From Octopus vulgaris (taxonomy: Eukaryota), in assembly GCA_951406725.2 (NCBI GenBank), contig OX597815.1, positions 54,622,001 through 54,686,000 of the forward strand: 64,000 nt of DNA, in the 5' to 3' direction. The translations under genes and the position numbers were made by a program. Shown in pieces: positions 16,050-64,000 of the stretch (position 1 is the stretch's first letter; the number at the start of each line of letters is the position of its first letter). The notes beneath the pieces were generated by a model, which saw only the letters and a list, made by a program, of their open reading frames with translations, was not told where the DNA came from and did not search any database.

Positions 16050-16220
16050 ATAAATTGTTTAGAACCCACCAAAACAGAGTTTACCAAGCGATTAATGAAG
16101 ATAAAAAAACGTGAAAGATTAGTCCCAGATGCTGATGAAAGTCGATTTTTCTGGGGTAAGATATGGAGAAAACAAGAACAACATATTACTTCTGAATGGC
16201 TCTGCATCCTGAAGCAAACG
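16050..16220 (+). pseudogene. Short relic of a Dong/R4-like ORF (pre-RT region)
   Basis: PDADESRFFWGKIW...SEWL resembles EEVENFWMGIW...ADWI in the element at 1-2390. Confidence 0.55.
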
Positions 16221-16353
<133 letters not shown>

Positions 16354-18274
16354 CGAAACACTAGCCATTAACAAAGTAGCACCAACAATTATAAAATTCA
16401 TAGGGCACTCTATGAATAAATGGCAAACAGTCCTACACCTCCAAACAAAAGAGGGACTCATGAAAACCAAAGCTATCCCCATTAGAAGAGGAATATTCCA
16501 GGGAGACACGCTCTCTCCACTCCTTTTCTGCTTGGCACTGTCACCTCTATCTGATATGCTAAATAGAACTGGATGCGGATATAAATGTTACGGCAAAACG
16601 ACCAGCCACCTTTTATATATGGATGACCTAAAACTATACGCTGCAAATGACAAACAGCTGGAAACACTATTAAAGACAGTTCATGGATTTACCAAAGAAA
16701 TAGATATGAAATTTGGATTAGAAAAATGCGCCAAAGTAACTCTGAAAAGAGGAAAACTAGTTAAGAGTAACAACATCACACTAGATAAAACCAATGAAAG
16801 AAAAGAATTAGACCAAAGCCAAACTTACAAATACTTAGGAATCCATGAACTAGATAAGACACAACACACACAAATGAAAGAGAAAATAAAAAAAGAATAT
16901 TATAGACGAGTTAGATCAATACTAAAAACATAGCTCAATGCTAAAAACAAGATAATAGGTATCAACACTTTAGCTGTCCCAGTTATAAGTTACAGCTACA
17001 ATATCCTTAACTGGACACTAAATGAACTGACCAAAATAGATAGGAAAACAAGAAAAATAATGACAGGATCTAGGATGCATCACCCAAAATCTGACATAGA
17101 AAGACTATATATACAACGTATAGAAGGTGGTAGAGGCCTTATACAGCTGGAAAACTACTATAAAATAACCACCATAGGACTGCAAAAATACCTACTTCAG
17201 AAGGAAGGAAAACTGATCCAGATAGCAGCAAAACACGAGCAAAACAAAAAACTGTTCTCAGTATTTAAGGAAGCTGACAAATACAAACAAGAAATCATAC
17301 CACCTAATAAACACAAAGAAGAAGAAGAAGATGATGAAGAAACAACAAAAGCTATAAAACAAATGAAATCCAAACTAAAAATAGAACAGCAACGAGCCAT
17401 GATAAAACGATGGCAAGAAAAGCCCCTTCATGGTAAATACTGCACTAAACTAAACGCAAAAGAAATAGACAAAGAAAAATCCCAGCAATGGTTGAGAAGC
17501 TCAGGACTCAAAGCAGAAACAGAGGGATTTTTAATTGCAGCACAAGACCAAAGCCTCCCCACCAGAAATTACCAAAAACATGTAATGAAAAGAAATATTA
17601 CAAGTAACTGCAGAATATGTGGAGATGGACAAGAAACAATAAATCATATTATCTCTAGCTGCCCAGTCCTGGCTAAGAAGAAATATATTCACAGACATGA
17701 CAGAGTTGGAACCTACATACATTGGAAGCTATGCCAACATTATGGAATAACAACAGAAAAAAGATGGTATAGGCACACACCAGAAAAGGTCACAGAAAAC
17801 GAGAAAGCAACCATACTCTGGGATATGCCGATACACACAGATAGAGAAATTAAGGCCAACATACCAGATATAGTTGTCAGAGATCATGAAGAAAAAAATG
17901 CTTTCTAATTGATGTATCAATACCGGCAGATGACAACGTGTCTCTAAAAGAAATGGAGAAACTCTCAAAATACAAAGACCTGGAAATAGAGATAACTAGA
18001 ATGTGGAACCTGAAAACAGAAACAATTCCTATCATAGTAGGTGCATTAGGCATGATAAAAAAATATTCAGACAAATACATAACAAAAACACCAGGACTTA
18101 CAAACACATATAACATACAGAAAATTGCACTACTAGGCACTGCACACATCCTACGCAGAACACTTTCCATACAATAACCATCAGAGCATCACAACAAATC
18201 ACAGCACATACCCAAGGCACACAGAGCTGCGCTCGGTAGTGAAGTGAAAGCACGCTATAAAAATAAAACTACTG
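16354..18274 (+). mobile_element. 5'-truncated Dong/R4-like LINE (RT, CCHC finger, REL endonuclease) inserted in (TAA)n
   Basis: RRGIFQGDTLSPLLFC, HLLYMDDLK, YKYLG; CRICGDGQETINHIISSC; RHD; PDIVVRD...(frameshift)...EKLSKY. TAG at 16931-16933, frameshift in the A-run at ~17892, final stop at 18175-18177, ~97-bp 3' UTR, then TAA repeats. Confidence 0.92.
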
Positions 18275-20760: not shown

Positions 20761-21521
20761 ATATATATTTTCATATATAATATAGGCGCAGGAGTGGCTG
20801 TGTGGTAAGTAGCTTGCTAACGCACATGCGCAATTAGTCAGTTGCTTCCTGTTCAGCGAGAGTGGACGCGAGTCAATTAGCTCCGTCCAATTAAAGAAAA
20901 AAGACCAAAAACGGAAAGTTGTCGAGGTAAGTGATTTTGTTTATTGTGAGTTGGGCATAATTTATTGCGTGCCAATTATTATTTCAGTAAGTTGTGTCCA
21001 ACTCTGAGACAATTTCGCCTGCTCTGGGCGGCTGCCGTTTTTGTGTTCATTGGAAAAAAAAAAAAAAAAGAAAAAACAGTGGAGGGGCGTATCCTCAGAA
21101 TTCAATACAGTTACTGTTAAAATCACCGTTGGCGGTAGCCAGTGCTGTGTTTGGATTTGTTGAATTTATTCCCTTGTCAGAGTACTTCGCAAGAAAAGTA
21201 TAAAAATAAGCCACTATTGGATTACCTTTCGGACCTTTTTGTGGAGGTTGTGTTGCAGTTGCGGTGTTCCAGGTTCAACCCAGGCCGGGAGTACCGCAAG
21301 GCCAGAATATTTCTGCTGTGTTTTTTCTGTTTATTAACTTTCTTTTGAACTTCATTTACCCCCCCCCTTTGTTTTTTCTTTATTGCGACTTTCCGTTAAT
21401 TTCTTCCCTTCTGTTGTGCTTTCTCCTTTTTGTTTTTTCAAAAATCTATCAAATTTATTTAGACTTTTGAACTTTTTTCTTCCTGCTTTTGAGTCTAATT
21501 TGAATATATTTTTTAAAAAAC

Positions 21522-22765
21522 ATGGCAATGAAAAATAACAAAGTTTTGGAGTGGGAAATCATACCACCCAAAAAGTGGTTGAAGGACCGTGAAGATAGGA
21601 CGGTGGTGTTGAGAACCTACTCCAAGGCACTTGACACCATCGCCCTATTCGAAAAGACGGCAATTGAGGAGGAGTTGGAGGAGTATTTGCCAACAATTAA
21701 ATTCATTTCCAGGGGTGTCAAATATGGAACGGTGTGGTTGCTGTTTGACACCCCTGAAGAGGCTTGCAAATTTGCTAGCGAACCCTTGGAGGGTAAGGAA
21801 ATCTTATTCCTGCCCACTTACAAAAAAAAGAAATTGATGAAAGCTTGGATCTGCGGACTGCCACCCGACATAGAACCCGAGTGGATAGAGGAGACTATCC
21901 GCCGGGGTCTGGGTGACAGCGAAACTAAGCTCCTCAATGTAAAAGTTCTTCCTGCGGCTGCTTGGGTTGGCTCGAAAGCAGTTTTGACCCTGTGGACCCA
22001 ATCAGCCAATCTGGTTTTTCCAGATTTTTTAAAATGGCCGGGTGCAGGTACCCGGTGATGCTTGAGGGTCGCCCCCCTAAGTGTCATCGGTGCTTGGAGT
22101 CCGGCCACATAAAGAAGAACTGTCCTCGGGAACAAAATAGGATCCCGGAACAGTTAAGTAAAACCCCTCTAGAAGAGGGAACGATAACGGCCGAGAAAGC
22201 AGAGGACTCCTCAAGCAGAGGCCGAAAGAGGAAGGTGAGCAACAATGGGTGCTCACCAAAGGATAATAGGGATGAGGAGAGGAGGGCGAATCTTCCAGCC
22301 ACGGAGGAGACGCACCCTCCCTCAGTTGAAAAGGGAAAAAAAAAGAAAAAGAGGAAGAAAAACGGGACGTTGCCGGCTGTCAGTGTGGCACCGGAATGTC
22401 GCGGAACTACGTCGGTTGGGGTTGTGCCACCGACAAGAGAAGGAATACCGTTGGCGGAAACTGTGCCGCCAACGAAAGAACTGAATGTATTGGTCCTCTT
22501 CCATAGAGGAGGAGAAATTGAAAAAGTGATGGAAGAGCACTACAAGGGAGCACCTTTAGCCTTCACACAGGACCCCGAATGGCCTCCGCAGGTAGCTGTG
22601 GAGGCCGTGGCGTTCGACGTGACGCTAGGGCTAAAGGAGCTCAATGAAGACTATAACTTGGTCCCGGGCGACGCGAACTCGGAACTTGACTACGTTCTGA
22701 GGGAGGCGTGGTTGATGGTGGAGGGCGCGGGCACAAGCTATTTCGAGGACGATATGTATTATTAG
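21522..22765 (+). CDS. Tx1/L1-type ORF1 nucleic-acid-binding protein (~414 aa) with one -1 frame break at ~22025-22034
   Basis: ORF 21522-22058 joins ORF 21962-22765 in the -1 frame (LVFPDF-x-KMAGCRYPVMLEGRPPK). CCHC knuckle CHRCLESGHIKKNC, basic tract KGKKKKKRKK, and RRM-like ICGLPPDI segment (RRM is inferred). Confidence 0.75.
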
Positions 22766-22892
22766 TAATGGACTTAAGTCCAAAAATTGAAAAATTGTAA
22801 GAGGATTAATACCTCGTTTTGTATTAATAATGGACTGCTAAGCCCAAAATTGGAAAAATTGTAAGAGGTTTAATACCTCGTTTTGTATTAAT
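22766..22892 (+). repeat. Tandem duplication of a ~63-bp unit in the 3' UTR of the ORF1-only element
   Basis: TAATGGACT...AAAAATTGTAAGAGG(A/T)TTAATACCTCGTTTTGTATTAAT occurs twice. Confidence 0.9.
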
Positions 22893-25812
22893 CTTTTTTA
22901 AAAAGAACAATGTTTTAGAGAAGCAAAAGTCGGCGGGCGCTTTCTGTCTTCTCCCATCCTTATCATCTTTCTTTCATTATCATTCACCTCATTAATGTCC
23001 TCGTCCAGCCCGCAAAGCTAACTTAATCTGTGTACTGCCTTTATGGCAAATGTTTTGAAATAAAGTAGCTTGCTAACCAACCACATGGTTCCGGGTTCAG
23101 TCCCACTGCGTGGCATCTTGGGCAAGTGTCTTCTGCTATAGCCTCGGGCCGACCAAAGCCTTGTGAGTGGATTTGGTAGACGGAAACTGAAAGACGCCTG
23201 TCGTATATATGTATATATATATATATATGTATGTGTGTGTATATGTTTGTGTGTCCGTGTTTGTCCCTCTAGCATTGCTTGACAAGCGATGCTGGTGTGT
23301 TTATGTCCCCGTCACTTAGCGGTTCGGCAAAAGAGACCGATAGAATAAGTACTGGGCTTACAAAGAATAAGTCCCAGGCGGTGCTCCAGCATGGCCGCAG
23401 TCAAATGACTGAAACAAGTAAAAGAGAAAAGAGTAAAGAGTATAATCTCCTGCTCCATCTTTATTTTCTTATATAATTTCTAGCTCCATCGACCAAAAAT
23501 TTTACTATGGGAGTGGCTGTTTTTATTTGTTTTTTTTTCTTTTTTTACCACTCGTCAAAATGTAGTTGTAATGATAGTTTAGGGAAATGCGAAAGGATTA
23601 TTTCGCACTTTGGTTTGAAATAGTTTTTAAACTGTGTAGTTTTACAGTCAGCGCTTTAAGATCAATTTCATATCGAGATATTTGAGAGCTCTGTGATTAT
23701 CATGGTGATGGTGGTTGTGTCGATAATGTCGGAGATGTATTTATATCATTATCGCTCTCTTCTCAAGCAGCTTTTGTCTGATTCGAGGTGTCTTCAGAAA
23801 ATCAATGAATATCGATGGAGTTGGAATCACAATTGCTGTCTGTGACAAGGAATAACAATCGCCGTCTGTGACCACTATTTTCAAGCAAAGAAAAATTTAT
23901 GTCGCGAGGCTGTTTGACGTAATATGATTTCAGTTTGGGTAGACTTTATGCCAGTAAATCTTTAATCATTTCATATAGCTGACATAAGTAAATATAGAAT
24001 CGAAATAAATCATGATTCACCTGTAAACAGCAAGGGAATTTGGAAGAATAGTTACACCATCTTAGAATACTTATACCATCTTTGGTAGCTCACAGATGTG
24101 GTAGTGAAAATTTAGAGCGATAATAAAATAACTGTAAAATTCAGCATAGATATTTCATTTCTCCGAAGTTTTAGATTGTGCATCCGCCTCTACTTGGTAT
24201 CTAACTTCTGCAGCAATGCCTTACTGTTGTTCAGTGATCCATAATACATTATGGTTGTGGTTTTTCAGGGGAATGATTTCAGGACATTTGCTACGAATAG
24301 CATTGTAAGCAGTTTTGGCAAAAATGCTACACAGTACTTTCGCACATTCTGAGGCAGCCGATAAAAGTATGTTTGATAATTTCCACTTTGATATGGTACA
24401 ATCGACATTTTCTATCACAACATGGTTTTGCAGATCCTCTTCTCTTTCTACTATAGTAAGTATTTCTCCTCCAAGTTTCTCGTCAATTAAGTCAATCCAC
24501 CTAATTCTGAGTCGCATGAAACTGCTGTATACACAGAGTACCTATGCAAGAGTTCTTCAACTACTCTCAGGATGTTATTATTTTCACTACTGAGAATACA
24601 TATTATGTTCCATTTTTTTTTCGATTCATTGAGAGACATTTCTGTCCAACAAGTCATGTTCTCGTCACTGTTGATATGAAAGCTACCATATAAGGTAAAT
24701 GCATTCCTAGATTCTATGTTTAAACTGTGGACCTACTAAAGTGTCCAGTCTAGTATTCTAAATGTTGCTACTAGAGTCAGTACTATAAAAACATTATAAT
24801 TGAATGAAATAGATCTGACTTCCAAATTTTCTGAAGTCTGCTGTCATTCATTTGTCACTCTCCCTTTACTCACAGCACTAACACCTCCAATATTCTCACT
24901 AATTCAGAAATACTTCTCATATTATTCGTTTCAAAGTATTAAAACAACTTAGGTATACATTATAAATAGTATATGACTGTGTAATTTTTTTATTACATCG
25001 ACTTCATCGTCCATGTATTTTTTTTTACTAAACAGTTTGATTCGAGTCTATTTGTAGTATGTAAGCTTCCTCTACCAATAGTCGACTATCATGTCTCACT
25101 CATGTGAATTACTGTTCGGTTGTTTTGCAACAACTGCCAAATAAGTTGCATTTGTGATGTTATATATTTTAGTCTTGTACACTATTCATTCGTAAGCTCA
25201 TTCAATCAAGCTTCTTCATTGCCACGCTTCTTATTTGCATTTAGATTCTTCCCACCGGGACTCCAGGTCATTCTGAAAGGAATATTTACAAACTCAATGG
25301 GATGGCTTTTCATGCAATGATATACATTGATGAACTTAATGCAAACCTACACTTAATAATTCTGCATCTCTCTCGTGCTACCTCTACCACCTCTACAAGC
25401 TGTTCACGAAGGTCATAGTAATCAAACTATAGAAACTCTCGATGACTAACAGCCGATGAAACAGGTAATTTTACAGAAATTATCGCACGATGGACCACAT
25501 ATTGACTCTAACACAGCTCCTAGAACCAGTGAAAGAATAGAATCTTTCTCTTTACACTGGCCTTTATTCATTACAAAAGGCCTTTGATTGCAACAAGCTG
25601 AATGGACTGCTGTACTGACGTCTCGGGAGATGCGAGGAGTTAAAGCACAATACAAAAGGCGAACGCAGGATGTGCGAGCGATAAAGCTCTGTTGTTATCA
25701 CCTATAAAGTTACGCATTGAAAGTTCTGCACTATGCGTCAATCGAATGAAAATGAAATAGATGTGACTCCAGAACGTAGCACAAAGCCGACTAGTGGCGG
25801 GGAGGGATAAAA

Positions 25813-58075: not shown

Positions 58076-58355
58076 TGTCGTGATGAGAGTCACAACGCCC
58101 CCTTGCGAGAAATAGACTTGACCGAGCGATGATAAACAGTAGCGGCCGAAGTGAAGTTTGTGGGTGTTAGCTCAAGTTGTTCGGGTCGTACGTGTTTTGA
58201 GGGGCTGGAGTGTTTCTGTTGTGGGTTGCCATATTTGTTGTTTGGGTATTTATTGTTTGAGTGATTGTTGATGCGGTTTAGCGTCGCGCGGCGTCTGTTC
58301 TGGCGGCCGTTGTCTGTCTGAGGTGATTGTGAGCAGCCTCTCCCTAACGGGTGAG

Positions 58356-59436
58356 ATGGCCGGGAGGAATTTGTTTGAAAGTTTGTCGGAATTGTCGTCA
58401 TCTGGGGGGGGGGGAGTTGAGGGAGCGGTGGAAGAAGTGGATGGAGGGCTGGAAGGGACGTATGCAGGAGTGATGAGGCCGAAGGAGGAGGAGGTGGACC
58501 TGGCAAAATTGCCAGGCTTCCGGGATTTTATGAAGTAGGAGGAGAGCGGCGAGGTCGAGCTGTCACCTCCAGCAAGGCGTGGCGAGGGTTCAACCGTGGA
58601 ACCATCAAATATGGAGTGTGCGTGAATGGAGGAGGAGGGATTGAGATGGTAGATATGGAGGCTGTTGAGGAGGCTTTGAAGCGGACTGGAGAGGAAATTG
58701 TTTACCTGACAAGAGGAATGGAGTATGGAGCTGTAACGGTGCAATATGGAAGTGAGAGCGTTGCCAGAGGGATGGCGGCCAAGGTGGTAAAAACGGAGAA
58801 GATGTACTTGCTGCCCTCGTATCTGAATAGAGGGACCACAAGAATTGGGGTGGAGGGAATACCTCCACACCTGGAGGGTGAATACATGACGGCGGCGGTG
58901 ATTGGGGGAAACGAGGAAAGGGTGGACATCCTCCACGCCACTATGAAATACGAAGGCGTGAGGGGTGCTACCTTGGACCTGAATGTACAGACAGAAGCGG
59001 AAACAATGGAGGGGCTGACAGAAAATATAGGAACGGGGAACATTATTATGAGAGTGTGGGTGGAGGGCAGGGCGCCCAGGTGCTATAAGTGTGGCCTGAG
59101 GGGTCACATAAGAGCCTACTGCCCTCCCCCACCAAAGGAAAAGGAAATCGTTACGGAGCCCCAAAAAATGGAAGACACCAAGGAGAGGGAGAACCAAACA
59201 GATAGGGAAGCAACTGAAGGGGAGGTGATCCAGCAAGAGTGGGAAGAAGGGAGAAAAAAATAAAAAGAAAGAAAAAAAACAGTACGAAACCCCAACCCAC
59301 CCCAACACCACCCGTACCCTCTGAGTCCCATCCTTCCCCTGCAAACAGCGATTCCACCCACTCCCCGCCTACAAGAAAAACAAAAGCAAATGCAGACACA
59401 CAGAACGAACAAAGTCCCAGGACCTATTTTTTATGT

Positions 59437-59468
<32 letters not shown>

Positions 59469-59907
59469 ATTTGACTCAAAAGCAAATAGCAAGGCCATGT
59501 AGGGGGACATGGAGTTAAGTACAGGGTGGTGTTCATGTAAAGAGTTCAGGCCACTTGAGGTCCAGGGAGGCTTTGAACAAAGCGGTCGTCGGCATCTTCA
59601 CCATCTCATCTGGCAGCTTGTTCCACGGATCCGCAACCCGGACGGAGAAAGCTCCTCTCCTTCGATTGCGAGGAAGAAGGACACCCAGAACTCAAAAAAA
59701 ATACTACATAAAGACGTATGGCGCGAACATGAAGATGGTAGTTACGCGGTTTTGAAAGATGAATTTATGGACACAATGGTGAGGAGGTGTGAGGAAGAGG
59801 GTATAAAATTGATGAAAGTGACAATGCAGGATGAAGTGATAGAGAAGTATGAAAGGAAAACGAAGAGTGTGATAGAAAAGCTAGGAATTGTGATTGGAAA
59901 TGGGTGA
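58356..59907 (+). pseudogene. Tx1/L1-type ORF1 protein (~440 aa reconstructed), disrupted
   Basis: MAGRNLF start, TAG at 58536-58538, frameshifts at ~58615 and ~59260, knuckle CYKCGLRGHIRAYC. Removing 59440-59670 restores an in-frame TYFLCV-RKKDTQ...IGNG*. Confidence 0.75.
59440..59670 (-). mobile_element. 5'-truncated CR1/L2-group LINE 3' end
   Basis: Minus-strand RRGAFSVRVADPWNKLPDEMVK...FKASLD...* (FSxRVxxxWNxLP motif), short 3' UTR and (TAAC)n tail. Confidence 0.8.
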
Positions 59908-60347
59908 TGAAGGACAGGTAAGTGGTGCTGGCGGATGGGGCCGTTCAGCACCGCTTTCATTTTTATCATTTTTATTTTAAAATTCATTTCTCATAATTTT
60001 AAATTGTTCTATGTCCCCAATGTGTTGTGATGTATTTCTCTGTGTCACCCCTAGTGGGTAATAAAGAAATAGTGTGTTAGCTCAAGTTGAGTCTTCAGCG
60101 AAGTCGGAAGATGTCGGTTGGTTAGTGTGTTTGGAATTGTTGGTTCGTGAAGAGATTGTTGTATTGTTACGTTGTTATTACGGCTGCATCGTTATCTTGT
60201 TTACTATTACTACACTTGTACAGTGTACCTAAACCATCCGTCACAATATCGTGGCGGCACCACGATACTGGAGACAGAGGTTACATCTGACGAGGGTTTC
60301 GAAGCTCACGTAGGTTATTTAACTTGTTCGTGATACAGCTTGTTAAA

Positions 60348-62750: not shown

Positions 62751-63275
62751 TTTTAAAGAGAGAGTGAGAGGCGGAGAGTTGCTGGAAAAAGAAAGAAGAA
62801 AATAAATTTCACTTCTTACGGAAGTCGAAATCCCGAAAAGGAAGATGTGGTGATGAGATTCACGACGTCCCCTTGCGAGAAATAGACTGGACCGAGCGTC
62901 GGAGTGAAGTTTGTATATGTTAGTTCGAGTTGAGTCAGCAGTGAAGTTGGTAGGTGTAGGTTGCTTAGTTCGATTGTTGGTACATAAAGAGATTGTTGGA
63001 TCGTTACGTTGTTATTACGGGTGCATCGTTATCTTGGTTACTATTATTACACAGGTACAGTGTATCTAAACCATCCATCACAATATCGTGGCGTTACCAC
63101 GACATTGGAGATGGAGCATACAACAGTTATCAATGACGAAAAATTATAGGAGTCGTGTATATATAACGACTGCAAAATATCTTGCGAAAGAAAAACTTGC
63201 TTGAAAGTCAAAGATAAGCCCACCAAGTAGAAACAGCTGTAAGAGTGGACATATGTATTTGTTTATTTATTCCTG

Positions 63276-63672
63276 TGATTATAGTAAATAAATTTTACTG
63301 ATGTTTGTCAATTGAATCTCTTCTCCCTTTTCTTCCTTGCCTTATAAAAATTCTGGATAAACTTTTGTTTACCTACACTTGTACATATTATTCAATGGTA
63401 CTATTGCCTTGCAACAGATAGTAAGTCTTTGAATATAAATAGGTATCCCTCCAGTAGTATACTGGATATATATTATCCCTTAGATGATTGTCTAACCTCT
63501 AACTCCTATTTATATTCAAATACTTACTATCTGTTGCAAGGCAATAATACAATTGAATAATATGTACAAGTGTAGGTAAACAAAAGTTTATCCAGAATTT
63601 TTATAAGGCAAGGAAGAAAAGGGAGAAGAGATTCAATTGACAAACATCAGTAAAATTTATTTACTATAATCA
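63276..63672. repeat. Near-perfect palindrome with 168-bp arms (63276-63443 and 63505-63672) and a 61-bp spacer
   Basis: TGATTATAGTAAATAAATTTTACTG...GAATATAAATAGG pairs with CCTATTTATATTC...CAGTAAAATTTATTTACTATAATCA, 3 mismatches by manual comparison. Confidence 0.95.
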
Positions 63673-63689
63673 TATATATGTATATTTAT

Positions 63690-64000
63690 ATACTCTTTTA
63701 CTCTTTTACTTGTTTCAGTCATTTGACTGCGGCCATGCTGGAGCACCGCCTTTAATCGAGGAACTCGACCCCGGGACTTATTCTTCGTAAGCCCAGTACT
63801 TATTCTATCGGTCTCTTTTTGCCGAACCGCTAAGTAACGGGGACATAAACACACCAGCATCGGTTGTCAAGCAATGCTAGGGGACAAACACAGACACACA
63901 AACACACACACGCATATATATATATATATATATATATACGACGGGCTTCTTTCAGTTTCCGTCTACCAAATCCACTCACAAGGCTTTGGTCAGCCCGAGG
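63690..64000 (-). mobile_element. tRNA-derived SINE (family B), cut by the window end
   Basis: Reverse complement of the family B body and tail (CTTGTTTCAGTCATTTGACTGCGGCCATGCTGGAGCACCGCC). Confidence 0.9.

Follow-up and report, generated by a model that had tools for sequence, protein, structure and literature searches.

How does a retrotransposon that encodes no reverse transcriptase come to be inserted, and why does it differ so much from its relatives? Both questions are raised by a 64,000-nucleotide stretch of the Octopus vulgaris genome (contig OX597815.1, positions 54,622,001 to 54,686,000; hereafter the window, in whose coordinates all positions are given). It contains two insertions, element 1 and element 2, each carrying the first open reading frame (ORF1) of a retrotransposon of the kind that lacks long terminal repeats (LTRs), termed non-LTR, but no ORF2. 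On the evidence set out below, element 2 is probably a dead, ORF1-only ('half') non-LTR retrotransposon that was likely inserted by means of a borrowed L1/Tx1 ORF2 and whose RNA had likely undergone hyper-editing by ADAR by the time it was copied.

Element 2 is an insert of 1,894 bp (58180-60073) delimited by a perfect target-site duplication (TSD) of 16 bp, GTGTTAGCTCAAGTTG, which occurs exactly twice in the window (58164 and 60074) and fails as a repeat once extended to 17 letters. It interrupts the 5' LTR of a decayed host element with matches to the Pfam integrase families H2C2 (E 2e-6) and rve (E 1.5e-4), which we take from its motifs to be a Gypsy element. In the host 3' LTR, the alignment runs straight through this site and contains the target just once (13/16 letters matching), and the two halves of the 5' LTR match the 3' LTR at 91% over 53 columns and 82% over 211. 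The insert, its duplication and the empty site described in the initial annotation are thereby borne out. Sequencing confirms that the left junction belongs to the genome, since it is spanned, with 0 and 1 differences, by contigs from two DNA runs of separate studies, one of which is possibly the source of the window. A tblastn search with three related ORF2 proteins found no ORF2 remnant in the element. ORF1 itself is not intact, being interrupted by one in-frame stop, two frameshifts and a nested fragment of another long interspersed nuclear element (LINE); beyond the frameshift in the linker, 36/56 aligned residues match the relative P0002 in the shifted frame. The nested minus-strand piece, presumably CR1-like by its motifs, has no Pfam match. 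Downstream of ORF1, the hairpin in the 3' untranslated region (UTR) is more stable than expected (z -4.6, 0/200 shuffles as stable). Rfam rows near the element proved to be microsatellite noise.

Element 1 follows the same plan, being TSD-flanked and ORF1-only, with one frameshift near 22035. The presence of two TSD-bounded, ORF2-less insertions had been proposed at the outset together with a distant homology of their ORF1 proteins, and both claims hold. All four motif pairs that had been lined up are present in the translations (4/4), the homology extends beyond the CCHC knuckle (BLASTP 23% over 98 residues, E 2e-11; E 4e-7 for the knuckle region), and a profile of the family run on the six frames of the window found both elements and nothing else. 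Equally, the two share no DNA similarity (best blastn E 0.04, 17 nt), and homology between their C-terminal domains, which had been called unrelated, is undetectable, with 894/1,000 shuffles scoring as well or better. In element 1, the hairpins near the 3' end do not exceed those of shuffled sequences, and directly after the stop a 62-bp unit is duplicated (22760-22892).

Pfam recognizes only a weak CCHC knuckle in ORF1, and no L1 ORF1 Pfam family is found among 103 members of the ORF1 family. Structure prediction of the core from a 103-row alignment gave a mean predicted local distance difference test (pLDDT) score of 93.7, compared with 34.7 from the single sequence; the best Foldseek matches of the model are tandem-RRM proteins (E 3e-5), and VIA gave a Z of 8.6 over 69 residues. 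The core is thus confidently modelled as RRM-RRM-CCHC. The family is large: HMMER returned 152 matches at 50% clustering, 150 of them listed, and 122/158 family proteins match over at least 60 residues and start before the knuckle. Twelve of the 30 relatives looked up carry a species name, and all twelve are octopod (O. sinensis, O. vulgaris, O. bimaculoides and Argonauta). A word-index protein search matched the element 2 core to none of 282 candidates and P0002 to itself only; a metagenome scan with P0002 gave 3 loci, all confined to the knuckle, and scans of viral sequences gave nothing relevant. The profile matched no protein among those of 1,508-4,305 residues, which is weak evidence on fusions, and 0/49 scanned relatives carry an endonuclease (EN) or reverse transcriptase (RT) domain, an uninformative count since ORF2 is a separate frame in two-ORF elements. 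As a separate observation, the relatives P0004 and P0145 are ORF1 pieces annotated as, or fused into, octopus gene models ('EPM2A-interacting 1-like' and an LDL-receptor-repeat protein).

Relatives that do possess ORF2 were reached through an alignment of five distant matches and lie on eukaryote-type contigs inside a genome, G001, filed as a bacterial metagenome-assembled genome (MAG). Many such contigs (L007-L014, L050-L062; C3-C19) consist of head-to-tail arrays of intact two-ORF elements of the L1/Tx1 group, with a period of 6.4-6.85 kb and a conserved spacer; clustering at 85% identity separates at least 7 types of ORF1. The arrays, spacer included, yielded no match to an Rfam or tRNA target. 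They amount to MAG contamination and to an undescribed tandem family, perhaps target-specific. The genome holds 73 matches to the ORF1 profile, and in 19 partly overlapping stretches 47/49 ORF1 frames have an ORF2 within 3.5 kb downstream, the other two lying at an edge. The ORF2 proteins, 1,158-1,181 residues long, contain EN, RT and zf-RVT domains, and their best match among solved structures is human L1 ORF2p (E 2e-69; R2, 1e-25). A profile of the C-terminal domain from the octopod side detects the two-ORF ORF1 proteins in 3/3 cases (0/500 shuffles each); matches by the profile from alignment A1 are not independent, as A1 includes members of the two-ORF group. The motif GGT[AG]AGT stands by the ORF2 stop in 14/15 two-ORF units checked (16 nt away in 11), and in element 2 GGTAAGT (59917-59923) follows the stop of ORF1, as if, to judge from the placement of the motif, the 3' UTR had been joined directly to ORF1. 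The motif resembles a splice donor and perhaps binds U1. By blastn, the 3' end of element 2 has no match to the G001 elements.

With about 21-30% identity to the two-ORF proteins, ORF1 of element 2 is, by sequence comparison, homologous to ORF1 of the L1/Tx1 group. Tandem arrays together with an RRM/CCHC ORF1 fit Tx1 as described, and element 2 is likely a Tx1 member, to judge from the ORF1 architecture, the tandem arrays of its relatives and published descriptions. A tree of 67 ORF1 rows (59/66 well-covered matches after near-copies were dropped, 7 G001 types and both elements; 11 rows octopod-named) is split with 100/100 support into 16 rows, which include all two-ORF types, and 51 rows, which include all octopod-named sequences and both elements. 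Each element has an O. sinensis protein as its partner in the tree, P0002 in the case of element 2 and P0106 in that of element 1. In the approximately unbiased (AU) test, holding element 2 with the two-ORF types was rejected, and a single clade of element 2, P0002, element 1 and P0106, which the tree does not show, was not (p 0.11). Direct sisterhood of elements 1 and 2 was also tried and rejected (AU p 0.001), a trivial outcome given that both have a nearer relative of their own.

Element 2 also bears a one-strand genomic excess of A-to-G changes, whose polarity is confirmed by distant relatives. Sister sequences were read from contigs of four runs aligned to the window at 80% likeness, which yielded 1,234 difference rows; of the 40 best supported, 27 fall in element 2, 12 in the host element and 1 in the left flank. 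Among the 27 rows listed for element 2, 19 have G in the window and A in the sisters, whereas the mirror change (window C, sisters T) and the reverse (window A, sisters G) are both absent; one row has T in the window and C in the sisters, and seven are of other kinds. The 19:0 ratio to the mirror change has a p of 2e-5 to 3e-4 given the base content, and the host element has only 3/12 listed rows of this type (Fisher p 0.014). At several sites the depth of the G-bearing sequence equals that of the locus-specific contig alone (16.6 in run X2), and the changes are therefore private to element 2. Five core residues are altered by the listed sites (four Gly/Arg and one Val/Ile), and in 5/5 cases the residue of the sisters is the commoner one in the family. 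More broadly, element 2 has Gly at 10/36 columns of Lys or Arg, compared with 26/1,396 in the 50 other rows (rank 1 of 51, p 4e-9), and the corresponding residue controls for T-to-C, C-to-T and G-to-A changes are all 0. The skew fades toward the 3' end of the element, and element 1 has no such excess (Gly at 1/31).

Ordinary decay consists mostly of C-to-T and G-to-A changes on both strands, and ADAR prefers a U before and a G after the edited A. The listed sites fit that preference: 9/19 are preceded by T (background 15%, p 7e-4) and 11/19 are followed by G (background 31%, p 0.013). Clusters of A-to-G are regarded as a mark of ADAR (PMC2873906), and the repeats of coleoids are broadly edited (PMC9068888). 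The burst is thus likely the scar of ADAR editing of the RNA, written back into the genome. The end branch of element 2 in the ORF1 tree is 0.59 long, compared with 0.18 for its sister, and its composition was flagged; because of the burst, part of this divergence reflects neither age nor selection. The description of element 2 as belonging to an old, diverged lineage accordingly survives in part: the ORF1 family is large and diverse, while some of the divergence attributed to age comes from the A-to-G burst. The TSD has remained intact beside LTRs that differ by 9-18%, which would have a chance of 0.04-0.19 if the insert were as old as the LTR split; weakly, this fits a copy that was already mutated on arrival. 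Two other family members are also Gly-rich at Lys/Arg columns, P0014 (4/32; the most skewed composition of the 51 rows) and P0106 (3/35), and are candidate edited copies or transcripts.

These features can be arranged in a tentative sequence of events. A master copy would have been transcribed from its 5' UTR, and its ORF1p, with two RRMs, a knuckle and a basic tract, would have coated its own RNA. A foreign ORF2p, supplied by an autonomous L1/Tx1 element, may then have been recruited through the 3' hairpin or the A-rich end, nicked the target and copied the RNA from its 3' end by target-primed reverse transcription, an insertion mode that would leave a duplication of 15-16 bp. Before copying, ADAR would presumably have deaminated the RNA, inosine being copied as G, and the replacement of basic RNA-binding residues by Gly would have crippled the copy at birth. 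The stop, the two frameshifts and the nested LINE fragment would have been gained after insertion.

Several results weigh against this reading. With regard to the editing, the 19/27 count comes from selected, best-supported rows, and the test of Gly at Lys/Arg columns was picked after the data had been seen. When all differences across the 6.9 kb are counted, the G>A rate per G is significantly above the C>T rate per C in only 2/4 runs. Codon tests, which used relatives at 59% identity or less and had little power, were null against P0002 (13 vs 7, p 0.26), significant for only 1/12 single relatives and null in the polarised count (6 vs 5). Glu is not enriched at the Lys columns of element 2 (1/12), and its 5' UTR fold (z 0.2) identifies no double-stranded substrate. 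With regard to the origin of the element, it lacks a long poly(A) tail at its 3' end, GGTAAGT is absent at the stop of element 1, a long branch (1.3) separates the octopod clade from the two-ORF group, and neither of these groups is matched by the C-terminal part of element 1 or of element 2. The ORF2-less structure is, moreover, known from two copies, and no contig spans a full sister. The null codon tests and the selection of rows, together with sisters that differ by up to 20% and may belong to other subfamilies, would suit a G excess produced by subfamily drift, by G-to-A changes in the sisters (APOBEC-like or CpG decay) or by a two-stranded process on DNA. We nevertheless regard a source other than ADAR as quite unlikely: distant relatives carry the residue of the sisters, so that the state of element 2 is derived; only 3/19 sites follow a C; the mirror change, at 0/27, argues against a two-stranded process; and the G letters are confirmed by contigs of other runs, which speaks against assembly error.

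How ORF2 was lost is a separate matter. Sister sequences of element 2 are numerous in DNA runs that bear two species labels: the summed depth at its listed sites reaches 2,705 (X1), 5,395 (X2) and 12,260 (X8, the other species label), compared with 46.8 (X1) and 16.6 (X2) for the contig of the locus itself, a sum that is not a copy number but indicates many sisters. Run X5, which is RNA only by guess, covers the flanks of the element too and is uninformative on expression. Depth is similar on either side of the ORF1 stop (59892 vs 60020-60034) in 4/4 runs, and in 3/4 runs there are a few contigs that agree with the 3' UTR beginning precisely at 59910 but have other letters upstream. Our tentative preference, short of an even call, is for repeated loss of ORF2 from diverse octopod L1/Tx1 families, which we favour over both a single old ORF2-less clade and one-off deletions. 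Of the 80 L1-Tx1 families in O. vulgaris, 13 are young, and the mean length of their young insertions is about 5.4 kb (421 insertions, 2.29 Mb; PMC13282606, Table 1); potential parents and partners with both ORFs are thus present in this species. HAL1 had several separate origins (PMC5753468), and among the telomeric elements of Drosophila ORF2 has been lost dozens of times (PMC13534243). These same precedents, and the fact that elements 1 and 2 have neither DNA nor a UTR signal nor any detectable C-terminal domain in common, count against the more doubtful alternative of one octopod-wide clade in which ORF2 was lost a single time and which has since diversified as a parasite of autonomous LINEs with its ORF1 under selection. 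That alternative draws on the absence of ORF2 from 2/2 ORF1-bearing copies in 64 kb, with no close L1/Tx1 ORF2 piece in the window, on the fully supported clade that unites both elements with all 11 octopod-named rows apart from the two-ORF group, and on the AU result for the two lineages; ORF1-core depth is also not below that of the 3' UTR, and ORF1-only lineages of Drosophila can spawn new ones (PMC13534243). ORF2 status is known, though, for only two of the 51 rows in that clade.

A one-off accident, in which a single two-ORF L1/Tx1 copy lost ORF2 by deletion once inserted, or through splicing or a template jump in that event, with no ORF2-less master, appears improbable. It would agree with the two-ORF structure of the closest relatives for which DNA is available, with the other sequences whose likeness to element 2 covers the 3' UTR past the ORF1 stop, and with the fact that the ORF2-less structure was read in no sister of element 2, the contigs being shorter than the element; against it stand two independent copies without a trace of ORF2 that kept a clean stop, a 3' UTR and AATAAA, and the even depth on both sides of the stop in all four runs. 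That the elements are processed pseudogenes of domesticated, ORF1-derived host genes resembling ZCCHC3 is highly improbable. Several relatives are annotated as octopus genes, the element ends in AATAAA, and scores of 0.87-0.89 were obtained for Atlas rows that contain ZCCHC3 RNA-binding domains, a lead only; yet the high summed depth of diverse sisters, the dozens of divergent paralogues, many of them truncated, and an ORF1 directly homologous to that of intact two-ORF elements all point to a retrotransposon.

A half LINE with a borrowed ORF2 has precedents, and element 2 works like HAL1, HeT-A and Ag-Sponge yet is a member of none of them. It has the ORF1-only structure, the LINE-derived ORF1, the TSD and the A-rich, if short, 3' end of the class of ORF1-present bipartite non-autonomous LINEs. 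Like HAL1, it is non-autonomous, derived from the L1 group, flanked by TSDs and equipped with ORF1p only, ORF2 acting in trans (PMC5753468, PMC5786205). HAL1 proper, however, has an L1-type ORF1p of the mammalian coiled-coil kind, whereas the ORF1 of element 2 is modelled as two RRMs and a CCHC knuckle; element 2 also resides in an octopod, has a parent group of Tx1-like appearance and bears a short 3' UTR with a hairpin. With HeT-A and the ORF1-only telomeric elements of the Jockey clade it shares the derivation from a LINE, a knuckle-bearing ORF1 and the need for a partner RT (PMC13534243), but it is dispersed, with TSDs in other repeats rather than in telomeric arrays, and has a single knuckle. 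HeT-A and Ag-Sponge, the latter an ORF1-only derivative of CR1 (cited in PMC5786205), come from Jockey and CR1, in contrast to the L1/Tx1 origin of element 2. The Tx1 clade offers a similar RRM/CCHC ORF1 and insertion into other repeats (PMC4494074, PMC5203782), and the G001 elements a homologous ORF1 core, GGTAAGT after the last stop and a C-terminal motif common to the octopod relatives; unlike these, element 2 lacks ORF2, has a shorter ORF1 and stands outside a tandem array. Its cluster of one mismatch type recalls ADAR hyper-edited repeat RNA (PMC2873906, PMC9068888), except that here the marks sit in the genomic DNA of a retrocopy, and the retroelements with genome-fixed APOBEC edits (PMC2873906) carry G-to-A rather than A-to-G.

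ORF1-only derivatives of LINEs are thus known from L1, Jockey and CR1 (PMC5786205). In the literature covered, we found no such derivative of Tx1 elements and no case in a cephalopod, with Repbase and the Zenodo library of O. vulgaris, which may hold them, outside that coverage; the accessible part of the 2026 repeat annotation of O. vulgaris (PMC13282606) makes no mention of ORF1-only elements. An annotation based on RT would leave such elements 'unknown' or call them host genes, as has happened to several relatives. Of greater importance than this anatomy is the A-to-G burst: what is new in element 2 is the sense-strand A-to-G hypermutation of an ORF1-only LINE copy, with ADAR as its likely source. 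In a literature coverage that mostly excludes subscription papers, we found no report of a LINE copy that ADAR had edited and that had become fixed in the genome of an animal. A role of ADAR in defence against repeats has been described as proposed but unexplored (PMC9068888). Were edited retrocopies indeed fixed in DNA, ADAR would have to meet retrotransposon RNA in the germline, the editing could be dated, and the divergence-based ages of edited copies would be inflated. A wider scenario, in which octopods host an old and diverse ORF2-less 'half-Tx1' clade while ADAR edits reverse-transcribed into the germline leave datable fossils and speed the evolution of ORF1, is on present evidence unlikely.

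Table 1 Features of element 2, its host element and element 1 in the window.
Feature	Position	Strand	Details
Left TSD, 16 bp	58164..58179	+	exact repeat
Right TSD, 16 bp, identical to left	60074..60089	+	exact repeat
Element 2 body, 1,894 bp, ORF1-only	58180..60073	+	no ORF2 remnant (tblastn with three related ORF2s)
Element 2 5' UTR, 176 nt	58180..58355	+	strongly A-poor (A 10%, G 36%)
Listed A-to-G sites in the 5' UTR	58203, 58212, 58223, 58224, 58286, 58288, plus 58329	+	
Element 2 ORF1, N-terminal part	58356..58588	+	ATG 58356; in-frame TAG 58536; frameshift near 58575-58590
Element 2 ORF1, core	58589..59140	+	a pair of RRM-like domains; a single CCHC knuckle at about 59078-59125
Element 2 linker	59141..59435	+	acidic, Lys-rich, Pro/Thr; frameshift in A-run near 59250-59262
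Nested 3' fragment of another LINE	59436..59666	-	(TAAC)n tail; approximate ends
Element 2 ORF1, C-terminal part (79 residues)	59668..59907	+	stop TGA at 59905
Element 2 3' hairpin, candidate recognition signal	59905..59968	+	GGTAAGT at 59917, 12 nt from stop
Element 2 AATAAA and short A-rich end	60060..60073	+	AATAAA at 60060
Host 5' LTR, split by element 2	58076..60285	+	about 58076-58163 and 60074-60285
Host 3' LTR with empty target site	62846..63122	+	
Element 1, no ORF2	20807..23077	+	15-bp TSD (20807-20821, 23063-23077); ORF1 21525-22765

The ORF1 proteins of the octopod and two-ORF groups have in common a conserved C-terminal domain of about 80 residues with an LKxxFPxDVG-like end (P0005, P0017, P0019, P0020, P0041, P0130 and P0149), for which neither Pfam nor Atlas has a family. 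Whether elements 1 and 2 have C-terminal domains homologous to each other or to this domain was also examined, a possibility rejected for want of a match. Elsewhere in the window, a fragment of another non-LTR element with RT and zf-RVT domains lies at 16196-17908, interrupted by one stop and with an (AAT)n tract upstream of it, and a second RT remnant occupies 186-1046 on the minus strand. The TSDs of elements 1 and 2 (20807-20821 and 58164-58179) both contain TAGCT, their sole common stretch, and both sit in other repeats (a SINE-like repeat and the LTR, respectively), which may be chance. Just past the host 3' LTR, at 63239-63709, lies a 205-bp inverted repeat with 90% complementary arms spaced by 61 nt.

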